Virus record (IMG/VR): IMGVR_UViG_3300037400_003293
Coordinates: 1,206 to 65,205 of that record
DNA length: 64,000 nucleotides
Direction: 5' to 3' (one strand)
Source: a virus
Lineage: Duplodnaviria; Caudoviricetes
Positions within the stretch are counted from its first letter, which is position 1. Each line of letters starts with the position of its first letter. A model generated the notes under the pieces. It searched no databases and was not told the origin of the DNA. It was given only the letters and a program-made list of their open reading frames with translations. Positions 10,596 to 37,040 of this stretch are shown piece by piece. A program made the position numbers and the translations under genes.

Positions 10596-10822
10596 TTTCC
10601 GGAGAAGGGACATTTTTACAATCCCTTCTCTTTTTTTTGTGCGTTCCACGATTTTTACAAGGGCGTTTATGAAGGGAAAGGAGGAATGCCTTGAGAGTAA
10701 TCCTGACCGAAAGAAGGGAGGCCGCATCGGCTTCTCTTTTTCTTTTCTAAGATAGAATTCTAATCTAAGATAGCTTTTTGATTCAAACTTTTCAGCCTCG
10801 TTAGTGAAAGGAGGTTGTTGAC

Positions 10823-11827
10823 ATGAGCAACCGAACAATTTATACTAACGATGTGCTGCAGAACCTTGACAACTACACAGAAACTCGCCTGAAGAATACG
10901 GAAATGAACGATCAGATTAAGTTGATCAATTTTGTGGACATTTGGCTGGATCTTTTTAAGAAGAACTCCATCAAGGAAGCGTCTTTGGCTCGTCTGATTG
11001 TTTCCCGAAAGGCTCTGGAAGATTACACCATCGCTCAAATGAAGATCGGAGACATCAGTTTCTTTGATATTCAGAAGTACATCAATTCCCTGGTAGACGC
11101 CGGTTACAGCATGAGCGGCATCAAGAAACAAACCTTGATCGTCACAGCACCGCTCAAACAGGCCGCTGCTATGCAGGTAATTGCAGCAGATCCATGTGTA
11201 GGCATCAAGATGCCAGTGGAAACGAAGGTAAAGAAAAAGAACCGTCCGGTTGTGGCGTACACTAAGGAAGACCAGGAACGGCTCTTTAAAGAGATCAAAG
11301 AGCATCCGGACAGTGTCGGGTACTTGGCTGTTGGCTTTATGATTGAAACCGGTGTACGTTCCGGGGAACTGATGGCGTTGAAATGGTCTGATATTGAGCT
11401 GGACCGCTGCCGTATGCGGATCCACGCCACCATCATCAACCCTATGTACAATACCGCCGCTTACCAGAATTCGCCAAAGAGCAAAAGCAGCAATCGAACC
11501 ATTCCGCTGACTCCGAAAGCAATCAGCATTCTGAAGAAGCTCCAACAGACCAGAACCACTGAATGGGTCTTCGAAGAGGACGGCGAACGGTATTCCTATC
11601 GCAGATTGGTATACCAGACCAAGAAACTGTGTCGGACGGCTAAAGTGGTGTATTACGGCGAACATGTCTTCCGTCATACCTTCGCCACGAATTGCTATTA
11701 TAAAGGGATCGATGTCAAGATCCTGAGCCGCCTGATGGGGCACAGCAGCGTACAGGTAACCTACAATACCTACATCAACCTGTATGGAGACGGCTTCGAC
11801 ACCATGTATGCAGCGTTGTGTTTCTGA
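10823..11827 (+). CDS. int: Tyrosine integrase
   Basis: Catalytic motifs ETGVRSGELMALKW, HVFRHTFAT and LMGHSSVQVTYNTY; SAM-like core-binding domain; RBS GAAAGGAGG. Confidence 0.95.
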   Translation: MSNRTIYTNDVLQNLDNYTETRLKNTEMNDQIKLINFVDIWLDLFKKNSIKEASLARLIVSRKALEDYTIAQMKIGDISFFDIQKYINSLVDAGYSMSGIKKQTLIVTAPLKQAAAMQVIAADPCVGIKMPVETKVKKKNRPVVAYTKEDQERLFKEIKEHPDSVGYLAVGFMIETGVRSGELMALKWSDIELDRCRMRIHATIINPMYNTAAYQNSPKSKSSNRTIPLTPKAISILKKLQQTRTTEWVFEEDGERYSYRRLVYQTKKLCRTAKVVYYGEHVFRHTFATNCYYKGIDVKILSRLMGHSSVQVTYNTYINLYGDGFDTMYAALCF

Positions 11828-11852
11828 TGCGAAATTTGCAAGCATTATTATG

Positions 11853-11982
11853 AAAGGGACGAATACAAAGGGTTAGCCCAATTAAATAAGTAGCGAGCTC
11901 TAGCTGAATAAGCTTATGTGTGTAGATAAAGTTATCGGACGCTTTGTAATCGTTTAGAGGAATCACAATTCCTCTTCCCTTT
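11853..11982 (+). ncRNA. Putative structured small RNA (cassette payload)
   Basis: Directly follows the repeated motif. AAAGGGA/TCCCTTT closing stem, TACAAAG/CTTTGTA inner stem and GAGGAAT/ATTCCTC hairpin; no credible ORF. Confidence 0.55.
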
Positions 11983-12010
11983 TGTGGTAAAGGTCCTTAC
12001 AAAGAAAAAG

Positions 12011-12055
12011 GTGGATCAGCGACGAGGTTTAGGAGCCCAAAATCGCTGATCCCAC
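12011..12055. terminator. Inverted repeat downstream of the tRNA-Cys fragment (minus strand)
   Basis: GTGGATCAGCGA / TCGCTGATCCCAC; positioned to follow the reconstituted host tRNA after integration. Confidence 0.55.
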
Positions 12056-12063
12056 TGGTTCTT

Positions 12064-12112
12064 TGGAGGCGCCATCCGGATTCGGACCGGAGCATAAAGG
12101 TTTTGCAGACCT
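12064..12112 (-). mobile_element. attP core = 3' half of tRNA-Cys(GCA)
   Basis: The reverse complement reads AGGT-CTGCAAA-ACCT TTATGC TCCGG-TCCGAAT-CCGGA TGGCGCCTCCA (anticodon arm GCA, T arm, acceptor and CCA). The 5' half is absent. It lies about 240 nt downstream of int. Confidence 0.85.
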
Positions 12113-12210
12113 CTGAAAGAAAGGACGGGTGAGTTTCTGTGTAGTCTAATATGAAGAAATATGCGAGCTTATACGAAAAATACACAGGCTTTTGTGAAGG
12201 AGGTGGCAAT

Positions 12211-12525
12211 ATGTCGTTAGATAGTTATTTAATGGTTTGCGGAATTGGAAGGTTTGTTGCTTGCTCATATGAACAGGTAAAATCGATTTTATCAAAACTG
12301 AACGAGGTTGCTAATTCACAAGGTTGGATTTCCATACAGAATATATTGGACATTGTTAATGATGCAATTCCTGAGATGGAAATGAAAGCAAGAGGAATCG
12401 CGCCTTGGTATCTTGATAAGGTTGGTTATTCCTTTAAAGATGAGCAGACTCAGCCATTCCAATTGACGACTGCTACATATAACGGGCTGTGTATATATGG
12501 CATCTACCCGACAAAAGAGGGCTAA
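12211..12525 (+). CDS. Hypothetical protein
   Basis: RBS GAAGGAGG before ATG 12211; preceded by a motif variant at 12172. Confidence 0.6.
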   Translation: MSLDSYLMVCGIGRFVACSYEQVKSILSKLNEVANSQGWISIQNILDIVNDAIPEMEMKARGIAPWYLDKVGYSFKDEQTQPFQLTTATYNGLCIYGIYPTKEG

Positions 12526-12583
12526 CATGGCCCTTTTCTTTTTGAATTGTTTGTGGTACAATAACCGAAAGGAGGAGGATAAA

Positions 12584-12856
12584 ATGAAACTTTATTTGAT
12601 GAAATGTCCTGACTGCGGAGGGCAGTTGGAAGTCGAAGAAGGCCTTCAGTTCTTCTACTGCAAATATTGTGGGTCTAAAATCCTTGTCGACCAGACAAAG
12701 ATACAAGAAATGGTACACGAGGAGAAGATGAGTGATATTGAGTACAAGAAAAAGCGGCTTGGAACGATCGAAGAGGTTGGTACGCTCATTTTAGTGGGTT
12801 TGATGATCGGCTTTATGTGTCTCATGGCTTTATTAGAATCACTTCATATCATTTGA
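12584..12856 (+). CDS. Zinc-ribbon protein with a C-terminal TM helix
   Basis: CPDCGG...CKYCGS; hydrophobic C-terminus; RBS GAAAGGAGG; extended -10-like TGGTACAAT upstream. Confidence 0.75.
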   Translation: MKLYLMKCPDCGGQLEVEEGLQFFYCKYCGSKILVDQTKIQEMVHEEKMSDIEYKKKRLGTIEEVGTLILVGLMIGFMCLMALLESLHII

Positions 12857-12903
12857 ACAGCTTCGGCTGCTTTTTTTTATTTTTGGGAAAGGTTGTGATT
12901 ACA

Positions 12904-13239
12904 ATGATATCGTGTCAATGGTGTGGGCAGAAAAGCGAGCACTTGATTAAACTGTATGAGGTTCATGGGAAGTACGTCAGCGATCCGTTGCCGGTTTGCA
13001 GGGAGCATTTGATTCCAGGAAAAGATCCATGCCCGGAGAAGCTGTACGAACTGATTGAAGAGGGGGATCAGATCCGTCGGAAGTGGTATGAGGGCGAGGA
13101 GCTCAAGCAAGCGATTGAACGAAGGCTGAACTGGTTTCACCAGCATCCCGGACAGCTTGACCATGCCTGGTCCAATGATTGGGACGGGAACATGAGGTAT
13201 TCCTGGTTCGAAGACCATCCAAACGAAATTACAAGATAA
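12904..13239 (+). CDS. Hypothetical Cys-containing protein
   Basis: CQWCG...C motif; start site uncertain. Confidence 0.5.
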   Translation: MISCQWCGQKSEHLIKLYEVHGKYVSDPLPVCREHLIPGKDPCPEKLYELIEEGDQIRRKWYEGEELKQAIERRLNWFHQHPGQLDHAWSNDWDGNMRYSWFEDHPNEITR

Positions 13240-13302
13240 ACACGATTTTTACAAATGCTGCTATGGAAGCCTTTAACACTTTTGGAAAGGAGAGATAGCA
13301 GT

Positions 13303-13383
13303 ATGTTTGGAGTAGCTGGTGTGCTGCTGATTGCAGCTGGCGTATTTCTGGTTGCCAAGTGGATCAAAGACGGAAATGACTGA
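13303..13383 (+). CDS. 26-aa membrane peptide (not in the ORF track)
   Basis: Motif at 13241 + RBS GAAAGGAG + MFGVAGVLLIAAGVFLVAKWIKDGND* + terminator. Confidence 0.65.
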   Translation: MFGVAGVLLIAAGVFLVAKWIKDGND

Positions 13384-13521
13384 AAAGAAAGAGGGGTCGC
13401 GTGAAGCGGCTTCTCTTTTTTTATTTTTGGAGATGTGATTTGTATGATATTTACAGAGAACGTACATACAATGCTCCTTGAAAATGCCGCTGTTTATGGC
13501 GGACATCAAGGAGGCATGGAT

Positions 13522-13950
13522 ATGGGCACTGTAACCAGACCGGAACTGAGCGAGAAAAATCGTTGGTGGATCAGCAAGCACCGCTACTACGAGCTGAAGC
13601 ACTTCTGTCTTCAGTATGAGGATTGGAAGAAAGCGCTTCGGGAGCTGGACGGATATTCGACAGTATCAGCCGTAGCGATGGAAAGAATCAATGTGGGACG
13701 AACCGGAGATCCTACAGCCAATGTGGCACAGATACGGGAGATGTACAGTCACCGGATGCATTTGGTAGAGTCGGCTGCATTCGAGGCCTGTGATCACCAA
13801 TTTTGGTGGGAATTCCTCTTGCGGGCAGTTACGGAGAATGTCAGCTACGATGCTCTGGAGGCACAGTTTGGCATTATGCCCGGCAGCCGCAACGACTGGT
13901 ATGAGCGGTACAGGAGGTTTTTCTGGACGCTGGACAAGATGCGTGAATAA
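13522..13950 (+). CDS. Conserved phage protein, possible transcriptional regulator
   Basis: RBS AAGGAGG; RPELSEKN..WISKHRYYELKHFCLQY; C-terminal helical pattern (SYDALEA...WYERYRRFFW) resembling RinA/ArpU-type regulators (recall only). Confidence 0.55.
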   Translation: MGTVTRPELSEKNRWWISKHRYYELKHFCLQYEDWKKALRELDGYSTVSAVAMERINVGRTGDPTANVAQIREMYSHRMHLVESAAFEACDHQFWWEFLLRAVTENVSYDALEAQFGIMPGSRNDWYERYRRFFWTLDKMRE

Positions 13951-14009
13951 AGTTATCACGCAGGTGACAGGTTTCGTTGCTATGATATTACGATCGGAAG
14001 GAGTATGCA

Positions 14010-14255
14010 ATGTCTGAATTGTTGGTTGGAATCTTGATCGGGCTTGGAGCGGGGGCTGTGGTTACCGCAATCACGGTGTCTCTGCTCATTGATAAATGGT
14101 ATGTGGGAAACCTCAATCTGGATGCCTCGATTCCGGAGGAGCCCTACTACTTTATGGAAGTGGGCCGGGGTATGACACATAAGCTCAGCAAAAACAAGCA
14201 TGTGCTGCTGAACGTCAGGAAGTCCAACTATGAAGACCGGAAGGAAACGAAATAA
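14010..14255 (+). CDS. Small N-terminal TM protein
   Basis: LLVGILIGLGAGAVVTAITV; RBS GGAAGGAG. Confidence 0.7.
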   Translation: MSELLVGILIGLGAGAVVTAITVSLLIDKWYVGNLNLDASIPEEPYYFMEVGRGMTHKLSKNKHVLLNVRKSNYEDRKETK

Positions 14256-14293
14256 TCAGGCCCTGTTGTGGAAGACCGCATTTCAGAAAGGAG

Positions 14294-14788
14294 ATGGAAC
14301 GTATGGATAACAGTATTGAGAGAATGCTTGCAGGTGAAATCGAAACGACCTTATCGGCACTCAAAACCATGAACGCCAATACGGAACAGGCAAAGGCGGA
14401 GCTGATGAAGCTGGCAAGGCTTCAGGAACTCAGAGCCAGGGAACTTGATGCAATCCTGAAGGAAAAGCAATTGGCTGAGACAAGTATGTCGAAAGTAGAC
14501 GAGATGTCTATCCGTAATGCTGAATTGGAGCAGAAGAGAAAGCAGGCGGAAGAAGAACTCGAGATGAAGAAGGCAGAACTGGCTCAAAAAGAAGCTGAAC
14601 TTAAGGAGGCAAAGAAAGGACGCTGGTGGAAGACGGTTCTGGATATTGTCAGCATCGGAGCACCGCTCGGTGTCGGGCTGTATGGGCTGAAGAAAGGATT
14701 TGAGTTCGAGGAGGAGGGAAAGATCTATTCCAGCAGGACTCCTCAATTCGTATCCGGATTCATGAGACTTTTCGGAAAGAAAGGTTGA
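14294..14788 (+). CDS. Coiled-coil protein with a hydrophobic C-terminal segment
   Basis: E/K-rich heptads, then VLDIVSIGAPLGVGLYG; RBS GAAAGGAG. Confidence 0.7.
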   Translation: MERMDNSIERMLAGEIETTLSALKTMNANTEQAKAELMKLARLQELRARELDAILKEKQLAETSMSKVDEMSIRNAELEQKRKQAEEELEMKKAELAQKEAELKEAKKGRWWKTVLDIVSIGAPLGVGLYGLKKGFEFEEEGKIYSSRTPQFVSGFMRLFGKKG

Positions 14789-14865
14789 GCAGAAAAGAGG
14801 CTCTGTGATATTTCACGGGGTCTCTTTCTCTTTTTGGACTTAGACAAAAATAAAGGAGGAACTTT

Positions 14866-15405
14866 ATGCGTACGACTACATTTCAGAAACAGGTAAGCAC
14901 CGGCGAGATCAGCTACATGCACGACCAAGGAATGTCAAATAAGGACATTGCCAAGAGGCTAGGGACGACTTGCGCCACCATCAATCAGTATTTTCCAGAG
15001 GAAAAACGCCGTTATACTAAGGTGACCGAATATGACGTGTACGAGATGGTGAAGCTTTTTGAACAGGGTGTTTCCGTCCAAAAGATAGCTACCAAATTCT
15101 ACTGCTCGAGCAGTACCGTGTATCGCATTCTGACTAATTACGGAATTACATTTGAGAGTAAGCGTGGCGGCCGTCCAAAGAAGAAAAAGGATGTAGGTCT
15201 TCCGGAAGCGCCAAAAGAAGCGGAACAAGCAAACGCAGGCAGGCTGGACCAGGAAAAGGTCGGCATATACCGTGGCCGAATCGGTAAATATGTCGTGGAT
15301 CGGGAAGACAAAACGGCGTCTATTCCGGAGATGATGGGCTGGATGAATAAGGAACAGCTCGGATATTTGATCCGAGATTTAATGATCGTGTGGCAGGAGT
15401 TGTAA
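14866..15405 (+). CDS. Tandem HTH DNA-binding protein
   Basis: GMSNKDIAKRLGTTCATINQY and GVSVQKIATKFYCSSSTVYRIL. Confidence 0.75.
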   Translation: MRTTTFQKQVSTGEISYMHDQGMSNKDIAKRLGTTCATINQYFPEEKRRYTKVTEYDVYEMVKLFEQGVSVQKIATKFYCSSSTVYRILTNYGITFESKRGGRPKKKKDVGLPEAPKEAEQANAGRLDQEKVGIYRGRIGKYVVDREDKTASIPEMMGWMNKEQLGYLIRDLMIVWQEL

Positions 15406-15408
15406 GCG

Positions 15409-15771
15409 ATGCGTTATCACTATGATCGGCCGAAGCATTACAGCAGCCATTACGGAGAGGAATATGTCTGCGATCATCCGGTATACAGTAAGTGTACTCT
15501 GTTCCGTGTGTGGGATCGAGGTCTGGCGGTCATCCAGCAGCGATACGATCCGGGGACAAAGAGAACCTATTGGGGCCCGATCGATCCTTGGCTGACAGAC
15601 CCAATCTACCTGAATCCGGCCTTCCTTGCCTATTTTAAAAAGAGGTCGGACGAGGCAGATGCAACCGGCTGTTATCCAACTGTAACAGTTCGGCAGATCA
15701 TGTGGGCGCTCAAGATGAAACCCATTCCAAAAGAGGTATGGGAGACCGTCTTTGATCGAGCGGAGATATGA
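15409..15771 (+). CDS. Conserved hypothetical phage protein
   Basis: 120-aa ORF coupled to the upstream gene. Confidence 0.65.
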   Translation: MRYHYDRPKHYSSHYGEEYVCDHPVYSKCTLFRVWDRGLAVIQQRYDPGTKRTYWGPIDPWLTDPIYLNPAFLAYFKKRSDEADATGCYPTVTVRQIMWALKMKPIPKEVWETVFDRAEI

Positions 15772-15813
15772 CACGAAATTTTCAAGCCTTCTTATGAAAG
15801 GAGGTTCGATAAT

Positions 15814-15954: not shown

Positions 15955-16019
15955 GCGCAAAGCCCACTCTTTTTTTTCGCGAAATATACAAGCCTTCCTA
16001 TGAAAGGAAGGTGCTGAAC

Positions 16020-16121: not shown

Positions 16122-16184
16122 GCGCAAAGCCTCTCCCTTTTTCACGAAATAAACAGGCTTTCTTATGAAAGGAAGGTGATTAAT

Positions 16185-16289
16185 ATGATCTTTACTCTGA
16201 CATGTATGTTTCTTCTTGGTTGGTTTATTGGCAATTACCAAGGGCACAAAGCAGAGAAAGCAAAGAACAATCCTGATCAAAAGGGGTGA
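16185..16289 (+). CDS. 34-aa membrane peptide (cassette 3)
   Basis: MIFTLTCMFLLGWFIGNYQGHKAEKAKNNPDQKG*; own motif, RBS and terminator. Confidence 0.7.
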   Translation: MIFTLTCMFLLGWFIGNYQGHKAEKAKNNPDQKG

Positions 16290-16378
16290 GCGCAATGCTC
16301 GCTCCTTTTTTTTTTTCACGAAATAAACAGGCCTTCTTATGGAACGGACGAGATCCGTATCGAAAAGGAGGATGGTTT

Positions 16379-16531: not shown

Positions 16532-16582
16532 CAAGGGCCATTCTTCTTTTTCACGAATTTTACAATGGGTGTTATGGAAGAG

Positions 16583-16906
16583 ATGTAAGTCTGAGCATTA
16601 GGTAATGCACTTAGATGAAGATGGATGTGGATCGAAACCACACGGACTTACATTACAGTTGCGGATAACAAGAAATTAGTAGGTGACGAAAGTTTCTAAG
16701 AAGCGAGGCTAAGAGAGAGGTAGACTCCTGATCGACCAACATAAAATATCGGCGGTTATCTGAGGGCGCTGCAGCGTCAATGACTGTATAAGAACTAAAA
16801 GTGGCGTGCCACCAAAGCGTGGTCCGATTTACGAAGAGGATTTCGATCATATGCAGTGATCAGAAATTGGTATGGCGAGTAACGACGTGAGTCTTGCAAG
16901 TTCTTA
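16583..16906 (+). ncRNA. Large structured ncRNA with a tRNA-like 5' domain
   Basis: Multiple nested stems found by eye (see findings); bracketed by the repeated motif and a poly-T tract; no RBS-supported ORF. Confidence 0.7.
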
Positions 16907-16940
16907 TTTTTTTTTCACGAATTTTACAAGTGATATTATG

Positions 16941-17023
16941 GAGAAGGAAGAACTGTGACACGCATGTAGTCGATTAGGTTCGACCGGTCTATACGGAGTG
17001 CGTTGCTCCCGTATAGCCTTCTC
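16941..17023 (+). ncRNA. Putative ~85-nt structured RNA (cassette payload)
   Basis: GAGAAGG/CCTTCTC closing stem, GTCGA-TTAGGT-TCGAC and CTATACGGAG/CTCCCGTATAG hairpins, then a T tract. Confidence 0.55.
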
Positions 17024-17984: not shown

Positions 17985-18043
17985 TTGTCACGAACAAAAC
18001 ACAGTCTTTTATGGAATCATGAACACGAAAGGAGGACAAAATA

Positions 18044-18400
18044 GTGATGAAAATTTATGTGGTTCCTGAAGACGATTCTATTAAAGCGAAGGTAGAGGCT
18101 TATATTCACAATCGAAATGTGGATCTCAAATGTGCGATGGATGAACATCCGATGGAGACTTTAGCGTTCGGAACAGCGGCGATTACGACGTTTGGGGTTG
18201 CCTTGAAGGCAATCCTCAGAAACGTTAATCTCCGTAAAGAGGAACGGTCGAAGAATCTGCGAGTGTGGGATCCGGTACTTGGAATCTACTGGGGATTGAG
18301 GAAAGAAATGAGCCAGAACCAGCAGCTTGAATTTGAGTCTCGCAGGAAGGCAGGTGAAACTTGCGGAGCTATTTTGCAGAGCATGAAGCTGTTGAAATGA
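18044..18400 (+). CDS. Hypothetical membrane-associated protein
   Basis: RBS GAAAGGAGG; central hydrophobic segment; preceded by the motif at 17989. Confidence 0.7.
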   Translation: MMKIYVVPEDDSIKAKVEAYIHNRNVDLKCAMDEHPMETLAFGTAAITTFGVALKAILRNVNLRKEERSKNLRVWDPVLGIYWGLRKEMSQNQQLEFESRRKAGETCGAILQSMKLLK

Positions 18401-19282: not shown

Positions 19283-19634
19283 TCAAATTGCAATGATATT
19301 TGGTTACTTCATGCTTGTTATGATGGCCCTGTTCTGTCTGTATGTGCTGTATATCACCATCCGTGATCATTTTGCGGAAAAGAAGGCTACAAATAAGAAA
19401 TATCTCGAACATCTGAGGGAAGAAATTGACAATAATGAAAAACGTATCGGACATCTGATTTGCACGACAGCCGAACTTGACGAACGACTTACTCTCCTTG
19501 AGGAAAGCACGAAAAAAACAGAGTCTGCTATGGAAGAACCGAAAGGAGGTATCTGCCATGAAGAAGTTTCTGGGAAACCTGAAGGACCAGATCGTGAGCA
19601 AGTGCGAGAACGCGGACAAGACGAAGGTGCTTAA
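19275..19634 (+). CDS. TM + coiled-coil protein
   Basis: RBS AAGGAGG; IAMIFGYFMLVMMALFCLYVLYI. Confidence 0.65.
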   Translation: MLNQIAMIFGYFMLVMMALFCLYVLYITIRDHFAEKKATNKKYLEHLREEIDNNEKRIGHLICTTAELDERLTLLEESTKKTESAMEEPKGGICHEEVSGKPEGPDREQVRERGQDEGA

Positions 19635-21067: not shown

Positions 21068-21159
21068 GTGGCTGTGCTTTTATGACTAAATCACGATTTT
21101 TTCAAAGTCTGTTATGGACGGAAAGTCCAGATAAAAATATTTGAGAGGAGAAACTCAAA

Positions 21160-21564
21160 ATGGAAGAAAACATCATGACGAACGAAGTAGCGGAACAGGT
21201 GGCTGATCAGCTGATCGACACTGCAACCAACGACATGACCGTGGTTCCTGCGCAGACCTGTGCGCAGCCGGTAGTGGCGTCTTCGAACGGGACTGGCAAG
21301 ACCGTTATGGCGGCTGTTGGTGGATTCATCGGTGGTGTTGCGGTTAGCGCCGCATTTAACCACTGGGTAGCACCGAAGCTGAGTAAGGCTCTGGCCGATC
21401 ACAAGGCGAAGAAAGCCAAGAAGAAGGCTGAGAAGGAAGCGAAGAAAGCGGGCAAGTCCAAGGACAGCAAGAAAGCTGAACCGGAACATCCTGAACCCCA
21501 GAAGCCGTACGATGTTGAGACCATGAAGAAGGATGATCTCAAAATTGACGATCTGGAAAACTGA
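21160..21564 (+). CDS. TM protein with a Lys-rich tail
   Basis: VMAAVGGFIGGVAVSAAF; preceded by the motif at 21092. Confidence 0.7.
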   Translation: MEENIMTNEVAEQVADQLIDTATNDMTVVPAQTCAQPVVASSNGTGKTVMAAVGGFIGGVAVSAAFNHWVAPKLSKALADHKAKKAKKKAEKEAKKAGKSKDSKKAEPEHPEPQKPYDVETMKKDDLKIDDLEN

Positions 21565-29532: not shown

Positions 29533-29574
29533 TACGAAGTTTACATCTGCTCCTATGAAAGGAGCGTGTAGCTT

Positions 29575-29889
29575 ATGAACATCGGTGATTTTGCAGAAAA
29601 GTATTCGGTGACAAAAAGAGAGGTTGCCTATTGGACCGACCTTGGATTGGTTCATCCGAAGATCAACGAGAAGAACGGCTATCAGGACTACGACGCTGAA
29701 AATGAGAAAGAGATTAAGTATGTCATTATTATGAAGGCAGCTGGGATGAAACTGGATCTAGCTCATCTCGGGTTTCTTAAAATGATTCCGGACGATATGT
29801 ATGAACAAATCGTTGTGGAACCTATTCTTGAGGAACGCCGTAGAATGAGTAAGTTCTATGATGACGCCCTCAGCTATGCCAGAGAATAA
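29575..29889 (+). CDS. MerR-family HTH regulator
   Basis: MNIGDFAEKYSVTKREVAYWTDLGLVHP...NGYQDY; own motif (29533) and terminator. Confidence 0.75.
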   Translation: MNIGDFAEKYSVTKREVAYWTDLGLVHPKINEKNGYQDYDAENEKEIKYVIIMKAAGMKLDLAHLGFLKMIPDDMYEQIVVEPILEERRRMSKFYDDALSYARE

Positions 29890-29955
29890 GAGGCACTTAG
29901 CCTCTTTCTCTTTTCCTCGCGAAGTTTACATACTCTGTTACGGGGGTGATTTGCT

Positions 29956-30216
29956 ATGACGAATCAGCGTAAGAAAGTAATTCCTAACTGGCGTGAACGA
30001 CTTGCTTTGTGGGTGATGAGGCACGGAATAGTTGGCAGCAATGGAGACTATACAATCTGCTGGTATAACAAAATACTTGCTAAGATTGCGAGCAAACTCG
30101 TTAAGCAGAACTATTTTGAATGGCTGGAGTATCAGCTCAAAGTGACTGGTTTATGGTTCACGATCGATGAGGAAAACCAGCTTCTGATGGCTGAAACAGC
30201 AAAACAATTGTCTTAA
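29956..30216 (+). CDS. Hypothetical protein
   Basis: Cassette with a motif variant at 29918 and a downstream hairpin. Confidence 0.6.
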   Translation: MTNQRKKVIPNWRERLALWVMRHGIVGSNGDYTICWYNKILAKIASKLVKQNYFEWLEYQLKVTGLWFTIDEENQLLMAETAKQLS

Positions 30217-30289
30217 ACGGACGGAGACTCTGTGATAAACATTGCAGGGTCTCCTGTCTTTTCACGAAATTAGAAAGGAGCTTAGACAA

Positions 30290-31072
30290 ATGAATAACAA
30301 ATTTTTACGGTCTGATTATGAAGAAGTTCGTCCTCTGCTCGATGATGAAAACACTCTGAATGGATCGGGATTCTTAAAAGGCGGGCTTGGCAAAAGACAT
30401 CTGGAAGAGTTTCGTATGTGGCTGGATGGAGCAACCTACCAGAACATCGCTGACACATTCAAAATCAGCCGGGAAATGGCACGCCAGGATGTACGGAAGG
30501 CTGCCCGCATTCTGATGAGTATGCATTTGGATAGCTATGATAAAAAAGAGCTTTCCAATATGGACCGATTTTTTGTTTATATCGGAAAGGTTGCACACGA
30601 AAAAGCATTAGATAGCCGTTACATTCGCGCTGCTAATTGCTTTATCCGTTCTCAGAAAGACTTGGATCACACCGATTTTCTGAAGGCATTAAGAGAAACA
30701 GATATTGAAGACATCCTGATGCTGAAAGGTATCAGAGCAATAGACGCCGCAATCCTTGTCGCCGCGCACAATCGTCTGATTGACGAGTATGTGGAGCCCC
30801 TTCCGGAGTATGAAAAATATCCGGTAAACCATCGTCCGGAGTTGAGGGCATTCCTTCAAAGCGTCGCGGATAAATATGGATATACCATGAACCACATCAC
30901 TCGCGCTGAGAATTGTTTTGTCCGCAACACGAAGGGCTTTGCCCCGGATTATCTGCAAGAATTAAAGGATGCCGACCCGGATACATTCATTACTTGGCGA
31001 AATGCTGGAGCTAAAACAATTGAGTTTCTGCGTCGGGCACATGACGAACTTAATCGGAAGGAGCATAACTAA
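30290..31072 (+). CDS. Sigma4-like HTH + two alpha-CTD-like modules
   Basis: GATYQNIADTFKISREMARQDVRKA; IRAANCFIR...DILMLKGI; TRAENCFVR...WRNAGAKTIEFL. Confidence 0.6.
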   Translation: MNNKFLRSDYEEVRPLLDDENTLNGSGFLKGGLGKRHLEEFRMWLDGATYQNIADTFKISREMARQDVRKAARILMSMHLDSYDKKELSNMDRFFVYIGKVAHEKALDSRYIRAANCFIRSQKDLDHTDFLKALRETDIEDILMLKGIRAIDAAILVAAHNRLIDEYVEPLPEYEKYPVNHRPELRAFLQSVADKYGYTMNHITRAENCFVRNTKGFAPDYLQELKDADPDTFITWRNAGAKTIEFLRRAHDELNRKEHN

Positions 31073-33311: not shown

Positions 33312-33439
33312 ACGGCATTGAACGGGCGCTCAATCAGATCAACAAAACACTGCAGCGGGGATTATCTCCCAAACCGATTACTTTAGCGGACTTTATTACA
33401 ACAACTGATGGCGCAGAGGAGGAAACAGAAAATGACTGA
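33254..33439 (+). CDS. Small coiled-coil protein
   Basis: 61-aa ORF overlapping the helicase 3' end. Confidence 0.45.
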   Translation: MGYYESEYVRNQEKIIRKLDGIERALNQINKTLQRGLSPKPITLADFITTTDGAEEETEND

Positions 33440-33923
33440 AAATATGACAAAGGCTCTTGCTTGGGTTGGATTTGGTGTTGGGGTTATGGGGATTGCAGCT
33501 GCCGCGTACAGCATGGATCAGGCGAATGCCTGCAAACGGATGATCTCGGATAGTCAGAAGCGCATCAGCGAACTGACGCACGTGGATGTGGACCAGTACA
33601 TCGTCAACGAAGCGGTGAGGAAGGCAGTCCGTGAACAGGCGTCGGAAGCGGTCGGCCACGCTCGCAGACAGATTGAAAAGGACATGAGCGCTGATCTGCG
33701 TAATCGCATTAAGCAGGCCGTGAGTAACAAGACTGATGAAATCAATAAGCAGGTCGCGGATCAGCTGGCCAAGGAAATGGCTGCGGTGGATAAGGACGAG
33801 ATCATCAGCCAGGTGATGGATGCTACCACGGACAAGCTCATTGATAAATTGGGCGATGATCTGGATCGCGAAGTCGGGAAGATGGGCAAGATCTATAAGG
33901 GTATCGCCGCGGTGCTTCAGTGA
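33432..33923 (+). CDS. TM-anchored coiled-coil protein
   Basis: RBS GAGGAGG; ALAWVGFGVGVMGIAAAAY. Confidence 0.7.
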   Translation: MTENMTKALAWVGFGVGVMGIAAAAYSMDQANACKRMISDSQKRISELTHVDVDQYIVNEAVRKAVREQASEAVGHARRQIEKDMSADLRNRIKQAVSNKTDEINKQVADQLAKEMAAVDKDEIISQVMDATTDKLIDKLGDDLDREVGKMGKIYKGIAAVLQ

Positions 33924-33932
33924 GGTGTTTAT

Positions 33933-34145
33933 ATGCTGTTTAAAAGATTCCGTAAAAAGCATGGGCTGTATGATCTCCGAAAAGAAGTTGCCATTTGGGT
34001 TGAAAAGAATATCGGCGCCGAATATGTCGATGGAGCACTTGATAAATACGACAAGATAAACAGCGGCGTGCCAATTGGAGGATTCCAAGAAACGGCAGTA
34101 TTTATCGATATGATTGAACGAATCAAAAAACAAGTGTTGACATAA
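33933..34145 (+). CDS. Hypothetical protein
   Basis: RBS GAGGTG; 70 aa. Confidence 0.6.
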   Translation: MLFKRFRKKHGLYDLRKEVAIWVEKNIGAEYVDGALDKYDKINSGVPIGGFQETAVFIDMIERIKKQVLT

Positions 34146-34154
34146 ATAGGAGTT

Positions 34155-34376
34155 TTGATCATGACTTGTGATAAAAATTGCTCACAGTGTTTTTATGGGT
34201 ATAGACAAGTCGAAAAATACAAGTGTGGCAATAAAAATGTGACATGTGATGGCGAATGCTATAAGTGCCCATTTCGCAAAGAGGAATCCGTAAAATATAT
34301 TTGCAATGTAACACGAAAGGAGTTCAACAATGAAAATTACACAGGCAGGCTGGGAGATCCTGACACCGATCAGTAA
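34155..34376 (+). CDS. Cys-rich small protein
   Basis: CDKNCSQC...CDGECYKCP...C. Confidence 0.55.
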   Translation: MIMTCDKNCSQCFYGYRQVEKYKCGNKNVTCDGECYKCPFRKEESVKYICNVTRKEFNNENYTGRLGDPDTDQ

Positions 34377-34995
34377 GGACGGGCAGGAAGAGCTCAAAGC
34401 CATCGAACAGGCCGCAAGAACCTGTTATAAGAGCGAGGCCAATCCGGATGACGAGCTGGCTGCGGCCAAACTGGTTCTGAGACTGATATCCAACGGTCAC
34501 GAGGCTATGCTGGAGCATCAGTCCTTGTCCGTCCGTTTCATCTGTGACCGGGCTGTCAGCCATGAATTGGTCCGGCACCGGATGGCGTCGTTCGCGCAAG
34601 AAAGTCAGCGCTATTGCAATTACTCTAAAGATAAATTTGGCAATGAGGTCACCTTTGTTCAGCCGTGGTGGATGGATGAAGAAGACGACGTTGGCTACCA
34701 TGATTGGATCCTTGCGTGCGAAGCGGCCGAGAATGCCTATTTCAAACTCCTGGGCTATGGATATCCTCCGCAGAAGGCCAGGATCGTACTCCCGAACTGT
34801 ACGAAAACGGAGATCGTCGTCACGGCCAACTACCGTGAATGGCGGCATATTTTCCGGCTACGGACAGCAAAGGATGCACATCCGGATATGCAGTGGCTGA
34901 TGAACTCTCTGCTTTATGAAGTACAGAAGAAAATTCCTGTGATCTTCGATGATATTTCTGTCAGAAAGATGAGCCAGATCCGCGAAAACGCCTGA
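34330..34995 (+). CDS. thyX: FAD-dependent thymidylate synthase
   Basis: ThyX motif RHRMASFAQESQRY; GHEAMLEH; ARIVLP; ANYREWRH. Confidence 0.95.
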   Translation: MKITQAGWEILTPISKDGQEELKAIEQAARTCYKSEANPDDELAAAKLVLRLISNGHEAMLEHQSLSVRFICDRAVSHELVRHRMASFAQESQRYCNYSKDKFGNEVTFVQPWWMDEEDDVGYHDWILACEAAENAYFKLLGYGYPPQKARIVLPNCTKTEIVVTANYREWRHIFRLRTAKDAHPDMQWLMNSLLYEVQKKIPVIFDDISVRKMSQIRENA

Positions 34996-35033
34996 TGTAA
35001 CACGGTTTTTACAACCAGTGTTATGAAAGGAAG

Positions 35034-35366
35034 GTGTTTTATATGACACGATATGTAGTAGCTTGGTTGGTAGCAAATGCGGTAACTATGATAATGATCT
35101 TGACAATGATCGGGATCAAGATGAGCCGGAGACTCAAGAATCACTACGGACAGTATCATTACCATTATGTGGAGGATTATTATGCTAAGTATGTCACATA
35201 TATGTGTACGAAAGATCCGTGGATGGCAAGATGGTTTTCCGGAAGTAGGGTGATTCATTGGATAAAAGTCTTGACCATTGGATGGTTGGCCGCCGGATGG
35301 ATGCTGAACTGTTACTATGATTTCGAGGAAGCAGAAGACCACTTTGAACTCTATGAGGGGGATTAA
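35034..35366 (+). CDS. Two-TM membrane protein (AT-rich cassette)
   Basis: Motif at 35001 + RBS + hydrophobic segments + terminator 35355-35387. Confidence 0.65.
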   Translation: MFYMTRYVVAWLVANAVTMIMILTMIGIKMSRRLKNHYGQYHYHYVEDYYAKYVTYMCTKDPWMARWFSGSRVIHWIKVLTIGWLAAGWMLNCYYDFEEAEDHFELYEGD

Positions 35367-35387
35367 CAAAGCCCCTTCTTTTTTTTT
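35355..35387 (+). terminator. Intrinsic terminator
   Basis: GAGGGG...CCCCTTC followed by 9 T. Confidence 0.7.
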
Positions 35388-35406
35388 GTGAAAGGAGCAT
35401 GAACAA

Positions 35407-35688
35407 ATGGCCAATAAGAAAAAGATCGGAGAACTGCCTAACAACGAAAAGCTTGGAGAACTGTTGCTGAAAGCTGCAGGTGATCGTTCTTTGAGACAGT
35501 ATGCGAGGGACGCAGGCGTGGCACCAGCAAGATTGTTTGAGATGAAACGTGTGAATGGCCCGAGGCCCACAATTATTTCTCTCCTTAAGCTTACGGAAGG
35601 AAAGGCTGCTCCACAGAATGGTGTAACGCTTTCTGATTTCCTGAGTGCTGCCGGATATGGAAACTGGACGGTGGTTCATCTGTCATGA
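35407..35688 (+). CDS. XRE/Cro-like HTH protein
   Basis: LGELLLKAAGDRSLRQYARDAGVAPARLFEMKR; RBS GTGAAAGGAG. Confidence 0.7.
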   Translation: MANKKKIGELPNNEKLGELLLKAAGDRSLRQYARDAGVAPARLFEMKRVNGPRPTIISLLKLTEGKAAPQNGVTLSDFLSAAGYGNWTVVHLS

Positions 35689-35948
35689 AGACACTCATTG
35701 ATACTTTCAACTCCTGGTGGCCGGCGTGGGTTCCACATGTGCTCGACTATATTGAAGGGCCTGGGAACAGCATTGCAGTTACATTCCAGGACGATGGATA
35801 TATGACAAGCAACGCCGTGTACCATTTTGGGATGAGTGACGATGGTACTGCATTCCTGCACAGAATTGATGAACTGAATGCTACGGACTATACGCCAGAA
35901 AGGATACAGAAATGGTTAGAATCACATGCGACCGTTGCGGACGCGTAA
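35685..35948 (+). CDS. Hypothetical protein
   Basis: Coupled ATGA overlap; 87 aa. Confidence 0.55.
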   Translation: MKTLIDTFNSWWPAWVPHVLDYIEGPGNSIAVTFQDDGYMTSNAVYHFGMSDDGTAFLHRIDELNATDYTPERIQKWLESHATVADA

Positions 35949-36109
35949 TACAGAACAGTGTGCTCCCGTTGATGAATGTAAAATTCCCGGTGCTGGACAT
36001 CTCTCTCAAATACAATTTGATAGAGGAGGCCGGGAAAATAGATCTGTGTGACAATTGTAGGAAAGAATTCTTCGACTGGTTGAATGTAAAGGAGGAAAAT
36101 GAAGAATGA
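35912..36109 (+). CDS. Zn-finger-like small protein
   Basis: CDRCG...DLCDNC. Confidence 0.6.
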   Translation: MVRITCDRCGRVIQNSVLPLMNVKFPVLDISLKYNLIEEAGKIDLCDNCRKEFFDWLNVKEENEE

Positions 36110-36348
36110 GTCTGTCTCAGGAACCTGTAGCATTGCTCGATCAGTGCCATGGATATTTTGTGAAGTTTACGAGCGCGGTGGATGGAAGGGATTTTTACAT
36201 TGATCCTTCCCGGGTGATGAAGATTGATGAGATTCCGATGGGCACTCGTATGGTGCTGGAGGGAAATATTATTGTCATTGCCAAGGAGCCTTTGGACGCT
36301 GTGCTTTATGCATTGACCGGCGTGGAACCGGATGGAGAGAAGGCATGA
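36106..36348 (+). CDS. Hypothetical protein
   Basis: RBS AAGGAGG; 80 aa. Confidence 0.6.
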   Translation: MSLSQEPVALLDQCHGYFVKFTSAVDGRDFYIDPSRVMKIDEIPMGTRMVLEGNIIVIAKEPLDAVLYALTGVEPDGEKA

Positions 36349-36354
36349 CAGCTT

Positions 36355-36549
36355 GTGATTGCTCCAAATTATGCTGGGCCACAGTCGCCATGTGATAAGG
36401 ATTGCAGCAAAAGGAGCCCAACTTGTCACGGTGAGTGCGTCCGTTGGAAGGCGTACGAGGAGAGACGACGAGCCTATCTCGAGGAAATTTATAGGCGGAA
36501 ACAGGCTATTCCGTACCGCAAAAAGAGGAATAATGGAGGCATGTGGTGA
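36355..36549 (+). CDS. Cys-rich small protein
   Basis: PCDKDCSKRSPTCHGECVRW. Confidence 0.55.
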   Translation: MIAPNYAGPQSPCDKDCSKRSPTCHGECVRWKAYEERRRAYLEEIYRRKQAIPYRKKRNNGGMW

Positions 36550-36568
36550 GGCAAAAAGGCAATTTTAG

Positions 36569-36860
36569 TGGCCACTTTGGCCATTTTCAAAAGTGGCCAT
36601 TTTCGGTCAAAAGTGGCCAATTGGCCAAATTTCGGGTAGTTAGTCATGACTAATTGTGTCAAAAATGTGTCACGATGGCCAAAAAAGTGGCCAATTGCCC
36701 GGGTTCTGCCCACTTTTAAAAACAAAAGTGGCCACACCTTTTTGCCTGATACCACAGGGGTTTTCGTCAAAAGTGGCCAATTGCCCACCCTTTTTCTTAT
36801 TTATTATAGAAAAAATTTTTATATATAATAAATAGGAAATTACCCGGGCAAATGGCCAAT
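36569..36860. repeat. TGGCCA / AAGTGGCCA repeat cluster with an AT-rich patch (putative replication origin)
   Basis: 10 TGGCCA palindromes in about 290 nt, five as AAGTGGCCA; AT-rich 36791-36840. Confidence 0.7.
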
Positions 36861-37040
36861 TCACAAATTTTGATATTTTTCACCAAATTCTGCCTGTGCT
36901 TTTGCACGGGCTTTTCTGTTTCGACCAAAACCGGCTAACGGGCTGAAAAAAACGAAATTTACAAGCCCTATTATGAAGAGAGAGTGACTCATGCACTTTC
37001 TCTTCTTTTGGTCGATTTTTGATAAAGGAGGATGCACTGC

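Follow-up and report, generated by a model that had tools for sequence, protein, structure and literature searches.

The window analyzed here is a 64,000-nt stretch (positions 1,206 to 65,205 of IMG/VR record IMGVR_UViG_3300037400_003293) of the 65,205-bp genome of a gut phage. Between 10.6 and 37 kb it carries 17 strong copies of a motif with the consensus ca-CGAAWTTT-ACA-N5-T-N-Y-TATG-RA, all on the plus strand and standing before early and replication genes, and a gene for a two-barrel RNA polymerase homologue lies downstream of the last copy. The features are listed below in window coordinates, with position weight matrix (PWM) scores and with the distances of Shine-Dalgarno sequences (SD) and start codons counted from the G of TATG.

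10647..10673, plus strand: copy 1 (CG at 10649, G of TATG at 10671), PWM 36.0; after a T-rich terminator tail; output a ~70-nt RNA or 19-codon micro-ORF, ending at the terminator 10711-10741, upstream of the integrase gene
10782..10808, plus strand: possible degenerate copy (CA for CG, AGTG for TATG), PWM 10.3; abuts the integrase SD
11828..11854, plus strand: copy 2 (GCA for ACA), PWM 33.5; 3 nt past the integrase stop codon; output a ~130-nt structured RNA, 11852-11983
12172..12198, plus strand: copy 3 (TGTG variant), PWM 30.8; SD 1 nt after G; ATG at 12211 of a 104-codon ORF
13241..13267, plus strand: copy 4, PWM 35.2; abuts a stop codon; then a 26-aa membrane micro-ORF (13304-13384) and a terminator
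14246..14272, plus strand: copy 5 (TCA and TGTG variants), PWM 30.8; overlaps the upstream stop codon; before an ORF ending at 14788
15772..15798, plus strand: copy 6, PWM 42.6; first of four tandem micro-peptide cassettes; SD +2, ATG +18
15978..16004, plus strand: copy 7, PWM 40.9; after an 8-T run; SD +2, ATG +18
16143..16169, plus strand: copy 8, PWM 42.0; after a terminator; SD +2, ATG +18
16317..16343, plus strand: copy 9, PWM 38.4; after the terminator 16279-16309 and an 11-T run; then a 50-codon ORF
16552..16578, plus strand: copy 10, PWM 38.8; after a terminator; output a ~325-nt non-coding RNA, 16576-16905 (from folding), in which no RBS-led ORF was found
16916..16942, plus strand: copy 11, PWM 34.2; after a 9-T run; output a ~85-nt RNA, 16940-17023
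17989..18015, plus strand: copy 12, PWM 27.2; after a stop codon; before ORF 18044-18400
19508..19534, plus strand: copy 13, PWM 31.7; before a 76-codon ORF starting at 19558
21092..21118, plus strand: copy 14 (TCA variant), PWM 37.9; after a stop codon; before ORF 21160-21564 and the conserved DUF6353/primase-polymerase block
29533..29559, plus strand: copy 15, PWM 33.3; 1 nt past the stop codon of the ssDNA-binding protein; SD +2; then the MerR-like ORF 29575-29889
29918..29944, plus strand: possible weak 18th copy (TACG for TATG), PWM 12.7; before ORF 29956-30216
35001..35027, plus strand: copy 16, PWM 35.3; after a stop codon; SD +2; then a 107-codon ORF
36951..36977, plus strand: copy 17, PWM 37.8; heads the endonuclease-exonuclease-polymerase operon
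36975..37009, plus strand: 12-bp hairpin followed by UUUU, its 5′ end exactly at the G of TATG of copy 17
37917..40889, plus strand: homologue of two-barrel RNA polymerases, single-chain, 990 aa (phrog_4291, E 4e-281)

Exact matches to AWWTWWACA-N8-TATGRA number 8 against 0.00 expected, and with up to two mismatches there are 21 against 3.0 expected, 19 of them on the plus strand. A PWM derived from the aligned sites was then scanned over the whole 65,205-bp genome. The 17 sites scored 27–43, the next best reached 12.7 (29920) and 10.3 (10784), and nothing on the minus strand of the whole genome scored at least 8, giving 17 strong copies and two degenerate or weak candidates. The initial annotation had described 16 copies on the plus strand; the strand is borne out by the scan, and the count rises to 17. 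The CG dinucleotide, the CA of ACA, the 8-nt spacing between ACA and TATG and the pattern T.TG are invariant in 17/17 copies, and an additional T three bases 5′ of TATG is found in 16. The three conserved blocks thereby occupy 27 contiguous bp, in which CACGAA lies 12 nt from a −10-like hexamer, T-N-T-T-A-T, with no A at its second position. The initial annotation had judged the 8-nt spacing unfit for sigma70; the 12-nt distance is likewise much too short for a sigma-70-type factor.

Every one of the 17 sites is intergenic or overlaps merely the stop codon of the upstream gene. Six copies lie directly 3′ of a run of 4–11 T residues that forms a terminator tail, and a seventh follows a terminator by about 40 nt. 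The PWM revealed no site in the regions of the structural, packaging and lysis genes (window positions 1-10,600 and 37,000-64,000) or in the 1,205 genome bases outside the window. Site-by-site placement thus agrees with the earlier observations that copies usually follow a terminator or stop codon, precede an RBS or an RNA and are missing from structural genes; the motif is not equally common in coding or late regions, its sites being intergenic and its count in late genes zero.

The position of the G within TATG is closely tied to what lies downstream. At six sites, the SD (AAGGAGG or AAGGAAGG) begins 1–2 nt after this G, and the start codon follows at +15 to +18. Folding of the RNAs beginning at 11852, 16940 and 36975 confirmed that the first stem starts at the G of TATG, as had been proposed: in the RNA downstream of copy 2, the G itself is base-paired to the 3′ end immediately ahead of the U run, and the closing stem of the copy 11 RNA starts at the same nucleotide. 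A small RNA of similar build begins at the corresponding motif position in Arthrobacter phage Makai, and the start of a tRNA-like gene in phage FP_oengus lies 1 nt past the G. The hairpin at copy 17 (−17.9 kcal/mol, z = −3.5) is listed as terminator-like and is a candidate attenuator or short RNA gating the polymerase operon. The position of copy 17 is also occupied in the relatives G005, G001, G002, FP_oengus, Crocheter, Kardesai, DrGrey and P1046. G005, G001, G002, FP_oengus and Crocheter each have a hairpin of other sequence at this location, and in P1046 a hairpin is displaced downstream by a few bases. The polymerase-operon leader hairpins of five Firmicutes relatives and of the Gordonia phage Crocheter differ in sequence but start at the G of TATG. 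Because the SD and the closing stems of the RNAs sit in fixed register with this G, transcription likely starts there, a start that the geometry of sigma-70 promoters cannot give.

The 990-aa protein shares 31–34% identity with polymerases from Lactococcus phages P118 and P1046 (phage 1706 group). The phage 1706 polymerase was listed as one of five distant 'YonO-like' families (PMC2919709). R511-x-P513 and D557-x-D559-G-D561 are invariant in 50 homologues, and the invariance of the DxDGD catalytic motif argues that the putative polymerase is active. An AF2 model (pLDDT 83) contains helix-turn-helix (HTH) regions at both ends, and a Foldseek search with this model retrieved QDE-1 (E 6e-9) as well as P74-26 gp62 and a phage gp64 RNA polymerase, 8f72 (E ~1e-6). 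Comparison with the single YonO sequence produced no match; hhalign of the 990-aa family against the YonO family gave E 2e-4 over 188 columns in the catalytic region, at a profile probability of only 46%, so the relationship is very remote.

The initial annotation had proposed a scan of relatives, which found the motif in polymerase-bearing phages from two bacterial phyla. By de novo discovery or iterated scanning, the same three blocks with the 8-nt spacing were recovered in polymerase-carrying phages of Faecalibacterium, Lactococcus, Streptomyces, Gordonia and Arthrobacter (G001, G002, FP_oengus, Lactococcus P1046, Streptomyces DrGrey, Gordonia Crocheter, and Arthrobacter Kardesai and Makai). 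In these relatives, polymerase identity is 31–58%, host G+C is 34–60%, and there are 0 minus-strand sites. In the reverse test, IMG/VR contigs were chosen by the DNA motif alone, and 32 of 49 encoded the polymerase, among them 18 of the 19 that were at least 90% complete. The non-structural proteins common to all five distant relatives comprise the enzymes primase-polymerase, helicase, endonuclease, exonuclease and polymerase, together with two function-unassigned proteins (one with a DUF6353 domain) and an 84-aa protein. No free-standing HTH protein is common to these five, no Sigma70_r2 domain was found, and neither a sigma factor nor a repressor is common to all motif-bearing phages. These phages have common ancestry (bioRxiv 10.1101/842583), so part of the co-occurrence of motif and polymerase could stem from shared descent and not from a link in function.

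Taken together, the homology of the enzyme, the two-way co-occurrence, the geometry and the lack of a shared sigma factor or repressor support the suggestion of the initial annotation that the motif copies are promoters of the phage's own polymerase. We consider it likely, from sequence comparison, that the 17 copies are read by the product of 37917-40889, and propose this protein as the reader of the 27-base motif. The other possibility that had been raised, a phage-modified host enzyme, is disfavored. The promoter would be compact, spanning about 27 bp from roughly −24 to +3, with the start at or next to the G of TATG. The polymerase's own HTH domains might recognize the upstream blocks (CACGAA, about −24 to −19; TTTACA, −17 to −12), perhaps independently of any additional factor, while the A/T-rich block T-N-T-TAT (−6 to −1) would melt, like the TATA block of T7-type promoters. 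Initiation would occur with the purine-rich G-R-A-A-G-G, which in many cassettes would already constitute the SD. Each promoter, mostly with an intrinsic terminator, could form a small independent unit expressing one micro-peptide or small RNA, or else a gene for early functions or replication. Copy 17, preceding the polymerase operon, would place the polymerase under positive feedback, and the hairpin and U run directly after it may gate this loop. With its gene behind its own promoter, first expression of the polymerase needs another route; neither a host promoter, nor read-through, nor a virion-carried enzyme was identified as that route. Late genes have no copy of the motif, and the reading of the copies as promoters of the phage polymerase does not account for late transcription.

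The motif might instead be a promoter for the host RNA polymerase, in which the hexamer before the G (TATAAT, TATAGT or TnTTAT) acts as a −10 element and a phage-encoded activator or unrecognized sigma-like factor binds the upstream blocks; in a variant, the HTH domains of the 990-aa protein possibly act as a transcription factor only. A perfect host −10 hexamer, TATAAT or TATAGT, stands before the G in the lineages of actinophages and lactococcal phages (Kardesai, Makai, Crocheter, DrGrey and P1046), and host sigma-A could therefore also use those copies; G001 and G002 carry TATTAT. The −10 element alone suffices for many actinobacterial promoters, and among the several small HTH proteins of this phage, one gives a weak Sigma70_r4 match. 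We nevertheless regard a host promoter as unlikely, since the hexamer of this phage and of FP_oengus is without the essential A at its second position, the upstream block is merely 12 nt away, and a start 6–8 nt past the hexamer would lie within the SD at six sites and disrupt the stems that close the RNAs and the leader hairpins. Furthermore, the small HTH proteins are not common across lineages and none of the proteins has a detected Sigma70_r2 domain, a single 27-bp motif is not expected from the sigma factors of Clostridia, Lactococcus and Actinobacteria, and the invariant DxDGD speaks for a protein that polymerizes.

Elements that do not start transcription were also weighed. Co-oriented, intergenic and numerous sites recall the stoperators of cluster A mycobacteriophages and cluster CA Rhodococcus phages, which are asymmetric, lie in one orientation to transcription and number tens of copies (PMC5559632, PMC13313380), and this phage has an integrase; alternatively or in addition, the copies could be boundary sequences at which gene cassettes are shuffled, as has been proposed for cluster AU phages, where gene translocations and deletions between repeat copies are reported (10.1101/2020.01.10.891226). 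We find an operator or boundary role improbable. Stoperators are 13–14 bp, are bound by the immunity repressor and occur genome-wide, whereas the motif here is 27 bp, with no late-gene copies. Unlike stoperators, it is kept in relatives without an integrase or recognizable repressor, in register with the SD and RNA 5′ ends. Relatives that keep it and are described as virulent or integrase-less are phage 1706 (title of Garneau 2008) and Arthrobacter clusters. No repressor gene is common to the motif-bearing phages, and the fixed distance to SD or RNA stem and the conservation across phyla impose a constraint far above what a patch of homology needs. If repeated promoters also recombine, this would be a by-product that is compatible with transcription by the phage polymerase. 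The strict strand specificity of the motif and its location directly 5′ of ribosome-binding sites would also suit an RNA-level element in longer read-through transcripts, one that marks a processing site, enhances translation or forms a leader bound by a protein. This we judge very improbable: with six copies abutting a terminator tail and one more ~40 nt past a terminator, the motif would often be largely untranscribed, copies also stand before non-coding RNAs and a tRNA-like gene, and the conserved stretch stops where the RNA structures start.

Promoters read by the phage's own polymerase would resemble several known systems. T7/T3/SP6-type promoters are contiguous elements of 23–30 bp without −35/−10 spacing, have an A/T-rich block just before +1 and start at a G followed by purines; many co-oriented copies are paired with hairpin terminators, and the polymerase gene lies on the same phage. 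The present motif shares the contiguous layout, the A/T-rich block before the G, the G followed by purines, the co-oriented copies, the terminators and the presence of its own polymerase. The T7-type enzymes, however, have a right-hand fold as opposed to two double-psi barrels here, and the promoter sequences show no homology; the actinophage version, CCTATAGTGAG, looks like the T7 core in reverse complement only by chance.

In all cluster AU Arthrobacter phages, a 32-bp intergenic repeat flanks each small gene at 28.5–30 kb (Giantsbane preprint, 10.1101/2020.01.10.891226); the preprint reads the repeat as a recombination boundary and draws no link to transcription or to the polymerase gene. 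The repeat region of the AU phage Makai contains TCGCA-N4-TTACA-N5-TATAATGA nine times, in most cases directly behind a terminator. Judging from place and pattern, the repeat is very probably the same element as the present motif.

A precedent for enzyme-specific promoter motifs is provided by Thermus phage P23-45, whose phage-encoded single-chain two-barrel polymerases gp64 (non-virion) and gp96 (virion) each have their own multi-copy motif upstream of mapped starts (bioRxiv 10.1101/2022.12.01.518664). The nearest solved phage structures to the 990-aa model are P74-26 gp62, a close homologue of gp64, and a phage gp64 polymerase (8f72). Enzymes of this type measure ~590 aa in the solved chains, whereas the 990-aa protein has HTH regions at both ends, and the hosts and phage lineages are unrelated to those of this phage. 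The P23-45 motifs are described as GC-rich and AT-rich only.

YonO of the Bacillus prophage SPbeta is likewise a single-chain two-barrel polymerase of a Firmicutes phage, and the catalytic region with R-x-P-H and DxDGD is common to both. The YonO transcript with a single mapped start begins with a non-coding RNA (Forrest et al. 2017, PMC5467207), as do several cassettes here. YonO transcribes one late operon, in contrast to the 17 putative promoters for early and replication genes, with none for late genes, in this phage. The promoter sequence of YonO was left undefined (PMC5467207). Downstream of yonO homologues, the sequence TAATCG-N3-5-T(A)AGGGAG is conserved, and SPbeta carries TAAT-NN-TCATTTATGARGG twice, once between the primer-extension primers of PMC5467207; this yonO-associated sequence differs from the 17-copy motif, though it likewise ends in TTATG-purine. 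A near-identical signal accompanies the polymerase studied here across phages of very different bacteria, and gives this enzyme family a concrete promoter candidate.

The repeated motif is a 27-bp, three-block signal (ca-CGAAWTTT-ACA-N5-T-N-Y-TATG-RA) carried on the + strand between 10.6 and 37 kb of the window. Its exact pattern has 8 matches in the window, where none is expected, and allowing two mismatches gives 21 matches against an expectation of 3. Alignment of the sites yields a longer form, (C)A-CG-A-W-W5-(A)CA-N5-T-N-Y-T-A-T-G-R-A-(A-G-G), in which CG, CA, T.TG and the spacing of 8 nt never vary. A weight matrix sets 17 sites (scores 27-43) apart from the rest of the genome; the next scores are 12.7 and 10.3, each upstream of a gene, and nothing on the minus strand exceeds 8 in the genome scan. 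All 17 sites are intergenic or overlap a stop codon only, six of them lying directly behind the T run of a terminator and a seventh approximately 40 nt past one, and the late region contains no copy in the same scan. These placements agree with the initial annotation, which had associated the copies with terminators and stop codons and had noticed none among the structural genes; its count of 16 becomes 17 with the matrix, and the rest of its motif description was correct. The 17 copies on the + strand, against none on the minus strand, thus form the array of many co-oriented, contiguous copies upstream of transcription units that is expected of promoters used by a phage polymerase.

The 65,205-bp record from which the window (bases 1206-65205) is taken is rated complete in IMG/VR, and all long ORFs of the window lie on the + strand.

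Gene order in the window, + strand
Tail and lysis genes, including an endolysin with SpoIID, NlpC/P60 and SH3 domains
Tyrosine integrase gene
Run of very small genes and RNAs
Replication block: two DUF6353 proteins, a 1425-aa primase-polymerase, an ssDNA-binding protein and a helicase
Endonuclease, Cas4-like exonuclease, 990-aa protein (37917-40889) and 84-aa protein (40906-41160)
Non-coding stretch of 440 nt (41161-41600), then terminase, portal, capsid and tail genes

The domain set of the endolysin points to a Gram-positive host. In relatives with defined ends, no other large gene stands between the gene for the 990-aa protein and the right end, and therefore the physical ends of this phage are probably located near 41.2-41.6 kb. 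The stretch 41161-41600 separates the polymerase block from the packaging genes and, by synteny with actinophages having defined ends, is likely to represent the cos/pac region; an inverted repeat rich in G/C, GGGAGGGGGT...ACCCCCTCCC, is located within it around 41286-41330.

Searches of the 990-aa protein against Pfam and against PDB sequences returned nothing significant, and its placement derives only from PHROGs, fold and profile-profile comparison. The protein matches PHROGs family 4291 (E 4e-281). Its sequence includes IRFPNQG and SGADNDGD, corresponding to the R-x-P and subsequent metal-binding DxDGD loop of two-barrel enzymes resembling YonO, the polymerase of prophage SPbeta, and residues R511, P513, D557, D559, G560 and D561 do not vary across 50 aligned homologues with identities as low as 39%. 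The AlphaFold model (pLDDT 83, pTM 0.70) has the overall fold of a two-barrel polymerase: Foldseek matched it with probability 1.00 to QDE-1 (E 6e-9), to P74-26 gp62 and to a phage gp64 polymerase (8f72), the latter two at E about 1e-6. Plant RDR2 was matched as well, and the large subunits of cellular RNA polymerases more weakly. The TM-scores to two-barrel structures are low (0.27-0.42) owing to extra domains. Membership in the T7 family of single-subunit polymerases was rejected, as the right-hand (Pol I-like) fold is not present and the top structures are two-barrel. The family profile does not match the single YonO sequence; against a 14-member YonO alignment it gives E 2e-4 and a probability of 46% over the catalytic 188 columns. 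Judged by sequence and predicted fold, the phage appears through this protein to encode its own RNA polymerase. Within the YonO-like branch, DNA-dependent RNA synthesis has been demonstrated for YonO alone (PMC5467207).

The polymerase family is large, with at least 8,000 proteins (all significant matches), 1,661 representatives at 50% clustering and at least 250 sequenced phage records, and its database members are frequently annotated with Sigma70_r4, GerE or HTH_23 domains. Of the distant YonO-like families listed by Ruprich-Robert and Thuriaux, five in number, one is that of "phage 1706" (PMC2919709). Koert and co-workers recognised this protein, which bears HTH domains at each end, as a signature of a phage supercluster comprising Arthrobacter clusters AM, AU and AW, Gordonia DJ, Rhodococcus CC, Microbacterium EL, Streptomyces BI, the Lactococcus 1706-like phages and FP_oengus, in a preprint in which the word "promoter" does not occur (bioRxiv 10.1101/842583). 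In every relative inspected, from phages of Clostridia through to actinophages, the 84-aa protein (phrog_4303; 37-67% identity) is encoded immediately 3′ of the polymerase; it is a candidate partner of that enzyme.

Relatives were located through the protein, because the polymerase region had no match in the phage collection by megablast. The initial annotation had proposed scanning the genome and its relatives for the motif, and the same signal is recovered from polymerase-bearing relatives by matrix, by iteration and by a model-free search. With the matrix of this phage, + strand hits number 9 in G001, 7 in G002 and 15 in FP_oengus, with none on the minus strand. Iteration from weak seeds yields 12 sites in P1046 (34% G+C), one of which is intra-coding and doubtful, and 11 in DrGrey (60% G+C); in both, the minus strand has no site. 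The model-free search sought the largest cluster of mutually similar 28-mers within non-coding windows; its top cluster is the motif in G000, G001, G002, FP_oengus, Crocheter and Kardesai, and in P1046 and DrGrey it consists of the terminators immediately upstream of the motif. The three blocks and their spacing are identical across lineages, and the letters vary by lineage.

Versions of the motif in phages carrying the polymerase
This phage: CACGAAATTTACA-N5-TnTTATGRA
G001 and G002: TTCGCGAAATTTTCT-N4-GTATTATGRA
FP_oengus: GACGCGAAAAATnCA-N4-CTTTATGGA
Lactococcus phage P1046: TTCACAwGTTTTACA-N4-CTATAGTAGA
Streptomyces phage DrGrey: TCGCA-N4-TTACA-nGnCCTATArTGAGACCCC
Gordonia phage Crocheter: CTCGCATATATTACACGTCCTATAATGAGACCCC
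Arthrobacter phage Kardesai: TCGCGTAAATTACAAGGGGTATAATGA

In the reverse direction, IMG/VR was scanned for CGAAWWTTNCA-N5-T-NN-TATGRA and the polymerase was then sought in 49 of the matching contigs. Among the matches listed, the enzyme is encoded by 32 of the 49 contigs; at a completeness of 90% or more the figure is 18 of 19, and the lone exception, a contig of 215 kb, is probably a chance match to the motif. Motif and polymerase are jointly inherited across hosts, among phages that all share ancestry.

The sequences that follow the motif indicate where transcription might begin. At six sites a Shine-Dalgarno sequence, AAGGAGG or AAGGAAGG, starts 1 or 2 nt past the G of TATG, and the start codon follows at +15 to +18. 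In three short RNA cassettes the closing stem begins with this same G and its other arm lies just before a U run, in accord with an earlier observation that the first stem begins at or directly after TATG. The copy at 36953 is followed directly by a 12-bp hairpin and UUUU, again starting at the G (36975-37009), and hairpins of differing sequence occupy the same position relative to the motif in G005 (L009), G001, G002, FP_oengus (L025, from 27708) and Crocheter (L101, from 43087). The hairpin at the head of the polymerase operon of P1046 (L027, from 39886) begins a few bases past the G. This hairpin and U run, heading the endonuclease-exonuclease-polymerase operon, look like a conserved attenuator or a tiny gating RNA. 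In FP_oengus a tRNA-like gene starts one base past the G; ARAGORN places it at 2935-3006 (L025), with an aberrant 2-base anticodon. The register of the Shine-Dalgarno sequences and RNA stems fits a transcription start at or beside the G.

A small RNA of the Arthrobacter phage Makai (L218, 31343-31420 in record coordinates) likewise has a closing stem that begins at the G, together with a T-arm-like GGTTCGAATCC. Its closing stem, GAGAAG.../...CTTCTC, is very similar to that of the approximately 85-nt RNA at 16940-17023 of the window (GGAGAAGG/CCTTCTC), and the latter RNA may be conserved between phyla. Rfam at gathering thresholds gave no family matches across the window, so that the RNAs following the motif copies have no family name.

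A promoter for the host sigma-70 enzyme would be expected to present -35 and -10 hexamers 16-19 nt apart, the latter TAnnnT, and a start 6-8 nt downstream of it. The -35 look-alike TTTACA lies only 5 nt upstream of the sole -10-like A/T-rich hexamer of the motif, and CACGAA lies 12 nt upstream, an arrangement as unlike sigma-70 promoters as the initial annotation had judged from the 8 nt between ACA and TATG. No conserved hexamer occurs 17 nt downstream of TTTACA in the aligned copies. In this phage the hexamer itself reads T-N-T-T-A-T, position 2 being A at just 3 of the 17 sites, and a start 6-8 nt past it would fall within the Shine-Dalgarno sequence at six sites and would cut into the RNA stems. 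The motif therefore fails as a sigma-70 promoter on spacing and, in this phage, on hexamer and start. The actinophage and lactococcal versions do possess a -10 hexamer (TATAAT, TATAGT), and because this is a perfect match, dual use by the host enzyme is possible in those phages. A sigma-70 consensus scan produced 17 matches in the early region versus 14.6 in shuffled sequence, which is no excess, and revealed no convincing host promoter for the polymerase operon. The top match of the early region, TTGACA-17-TATACT at 10818-10846 (11/12), overlaps the integrase start codon and so cannot serve the integrase gene.

Recognition of the motif by another phage protein was considered by comparing the complete ORF set of this phage with five distant relatives. 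Structural proteins aside, only a 200-aa protein, a DUF6353 protein, the primase-polymerase, helicase, endonuclease, exonuclease, polymerase and 84-aa protein have counterparts in every one of the five; the 200-aa protein and the 84-aa protein 3′ of the polymerase have no assigned function. None of the free-standing HTH proteins (14866-15405; MerR-like, 29575-29889; 30242-31072, which has a weak Sigma70_r4 match) is common to the five, and no ORF of this phage has a Sigma70_r2 domain. A phage sigma factor and a repressor operator are both weakened as explanations by these observations. A stoperator or operator array, as in temperate phages, was rejected on further grounds: no repressor-like protein is common to the distant relatives, and the motif is present in relatives reported to be virulent or without integrase.

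A separate word, TGATATT, was also rejected as a second promoter class. It is strongly biased towards the + strand (34 versus 3 here, 39 versus 2 in FP_oengus (L025) and 30 versus 1 in G003). In the window, 23 of the 34 copies, about two thirds, share the frame xxT GAT ATT, so that with all coding on a single strand the bias is mainly attributable to codon pairs. FP_oengus has 14 copies outside long ORFs, for which there is no codon-pair explanation.

Taken together, the sequence comparisons make it likely that the motif represents a promoter class for a branch of two-barrel phage polymerases. The original proposal that these elements are promoters of the phage's own polymerase is probably right, being supported by the fold of the enzyme, its co-occurrence with the motif and the register of the predicted start. 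Such a promoter class would be new to the literature, and the polymerase branch itself is without earlier characterisation. The element appears to have been encountered previously: a preprint on the Arthrobacter phage Giantsbane describes a 32-bp repeat on either side of every gene in a cassette of five (28.5-30 kb), present throughout the cluster AU phages, and reads it as a recombination boundary (10.1101/2020.01.10.891226). The corresponding region of the AU phage Makai contains nine motif copies, mostly directly behind terminators; the element had thus very probably been noticed already, with no promoter role assigned to it. In the literature searched, including papers on the related actinophage clusters, the motif is nowhere described as a promoter.

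A more far-reaching reading, which we offer tentatively and regard in its entirety as rather doubtful, is that the motif is a complete, self-sufficient promoter of a large family of single-chain two-barrel enzymes with their own sigma-4-like HTH domains, such that the enzyme alone would locate and melt it and initiate at the G of TATG with no help from a host or phage factor, the pair having been kept from Clostridia phages to those of Actinobacteria. In this temperate member, a polymerase gene under its own promoter, together with the leader terminator, would constitute an autocatalytic on/off loop replacing the classical repressor switch.

The polymerase operon is positioned behind a copy of its own candidate promoter. 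The first polymerase molecules might arise by read-through, from a weak host promoter or from packaged enzyme. Transcription of the late genes could come from the last promoter, reading on through the genome ends once the DNA has circularised, with the leader hairpin as a possible control point; alternatively, these genes might depend on another signal.

For the polymerase family, these results provide a 27-bp candidate promoter, a predicted start nucleotide and natural variants from seven lineages, and culturable phage-host pairs with this polymerase and motif are found in Lactococcus, Streptomyces, Gordonia, Arthrobacter and Faecalibacterium. If correct, the promoter assignment would explain how arrays of tiny genes and small RNAs are expressed in a supercluster spanning two bacterial phyla, would demonstrate sigma-free promoter recognition by a minimal relative of cellular RNA polymerases, and might offer a compact, host-factor-independent transcription system for Gram-positive bacteria.

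A further point of comparison is YonO, which was shown to be a polymerase in 2017 by authors who left open the DNA sequence that such enzymes recognise and their need for helper factors; they mapped a single start, ahead of yonK and an unannotated RNA, and did not define the promoter (PMC5467207). The published start (B. subtilis 168 position 2225998) was bracketed on the SPbeta record by the primer sequences of that paper only. The sequence TAAT-NN-TCATTTATGARGG occurs exactly twice in the 134 kb of SPbeta (L028, NC_001884), both times in the yonN-yonK gap on the transcribed strand, and one copy falls between the two primer-extension oligonucleotides.

Copies of TAAT-NN-TCATTTATGARGG in SPbeta (NC_001884)
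60434-60452, minus strand
60591-60609, minus strand

Between yonO and yonN (SPbeta 61210-61235) there is a related box, ATAATCGTCATAAGGGAG, and boxes of this type recur downstream of many yonO homologues (L030, L031, L041, L073, L085, L097 and others); the form TAATCG-N3-5-T(A)AGGGAG is found 90-200 nt downstream of many of them. The SPbeta word TCATTTATGA was rejected as a general signal of yonO loci, since it is not conserved in the more distant ones, where a different box, TAATCG...TAAGGGAG, is conserved. On sequence grounds, the TAAT-NN-TCATTTATGARGG and ATAATCGTCATAAGGGAG boxes are candidates for the YonO promoter. The proposed promoters of the present phage would resemble T7-type promoters in function and be unrelated to them by descent. 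The candidate YonO signal differs from the motif described here, but the two are alike in that an A/T-rich end is followed by a purine-rich start.
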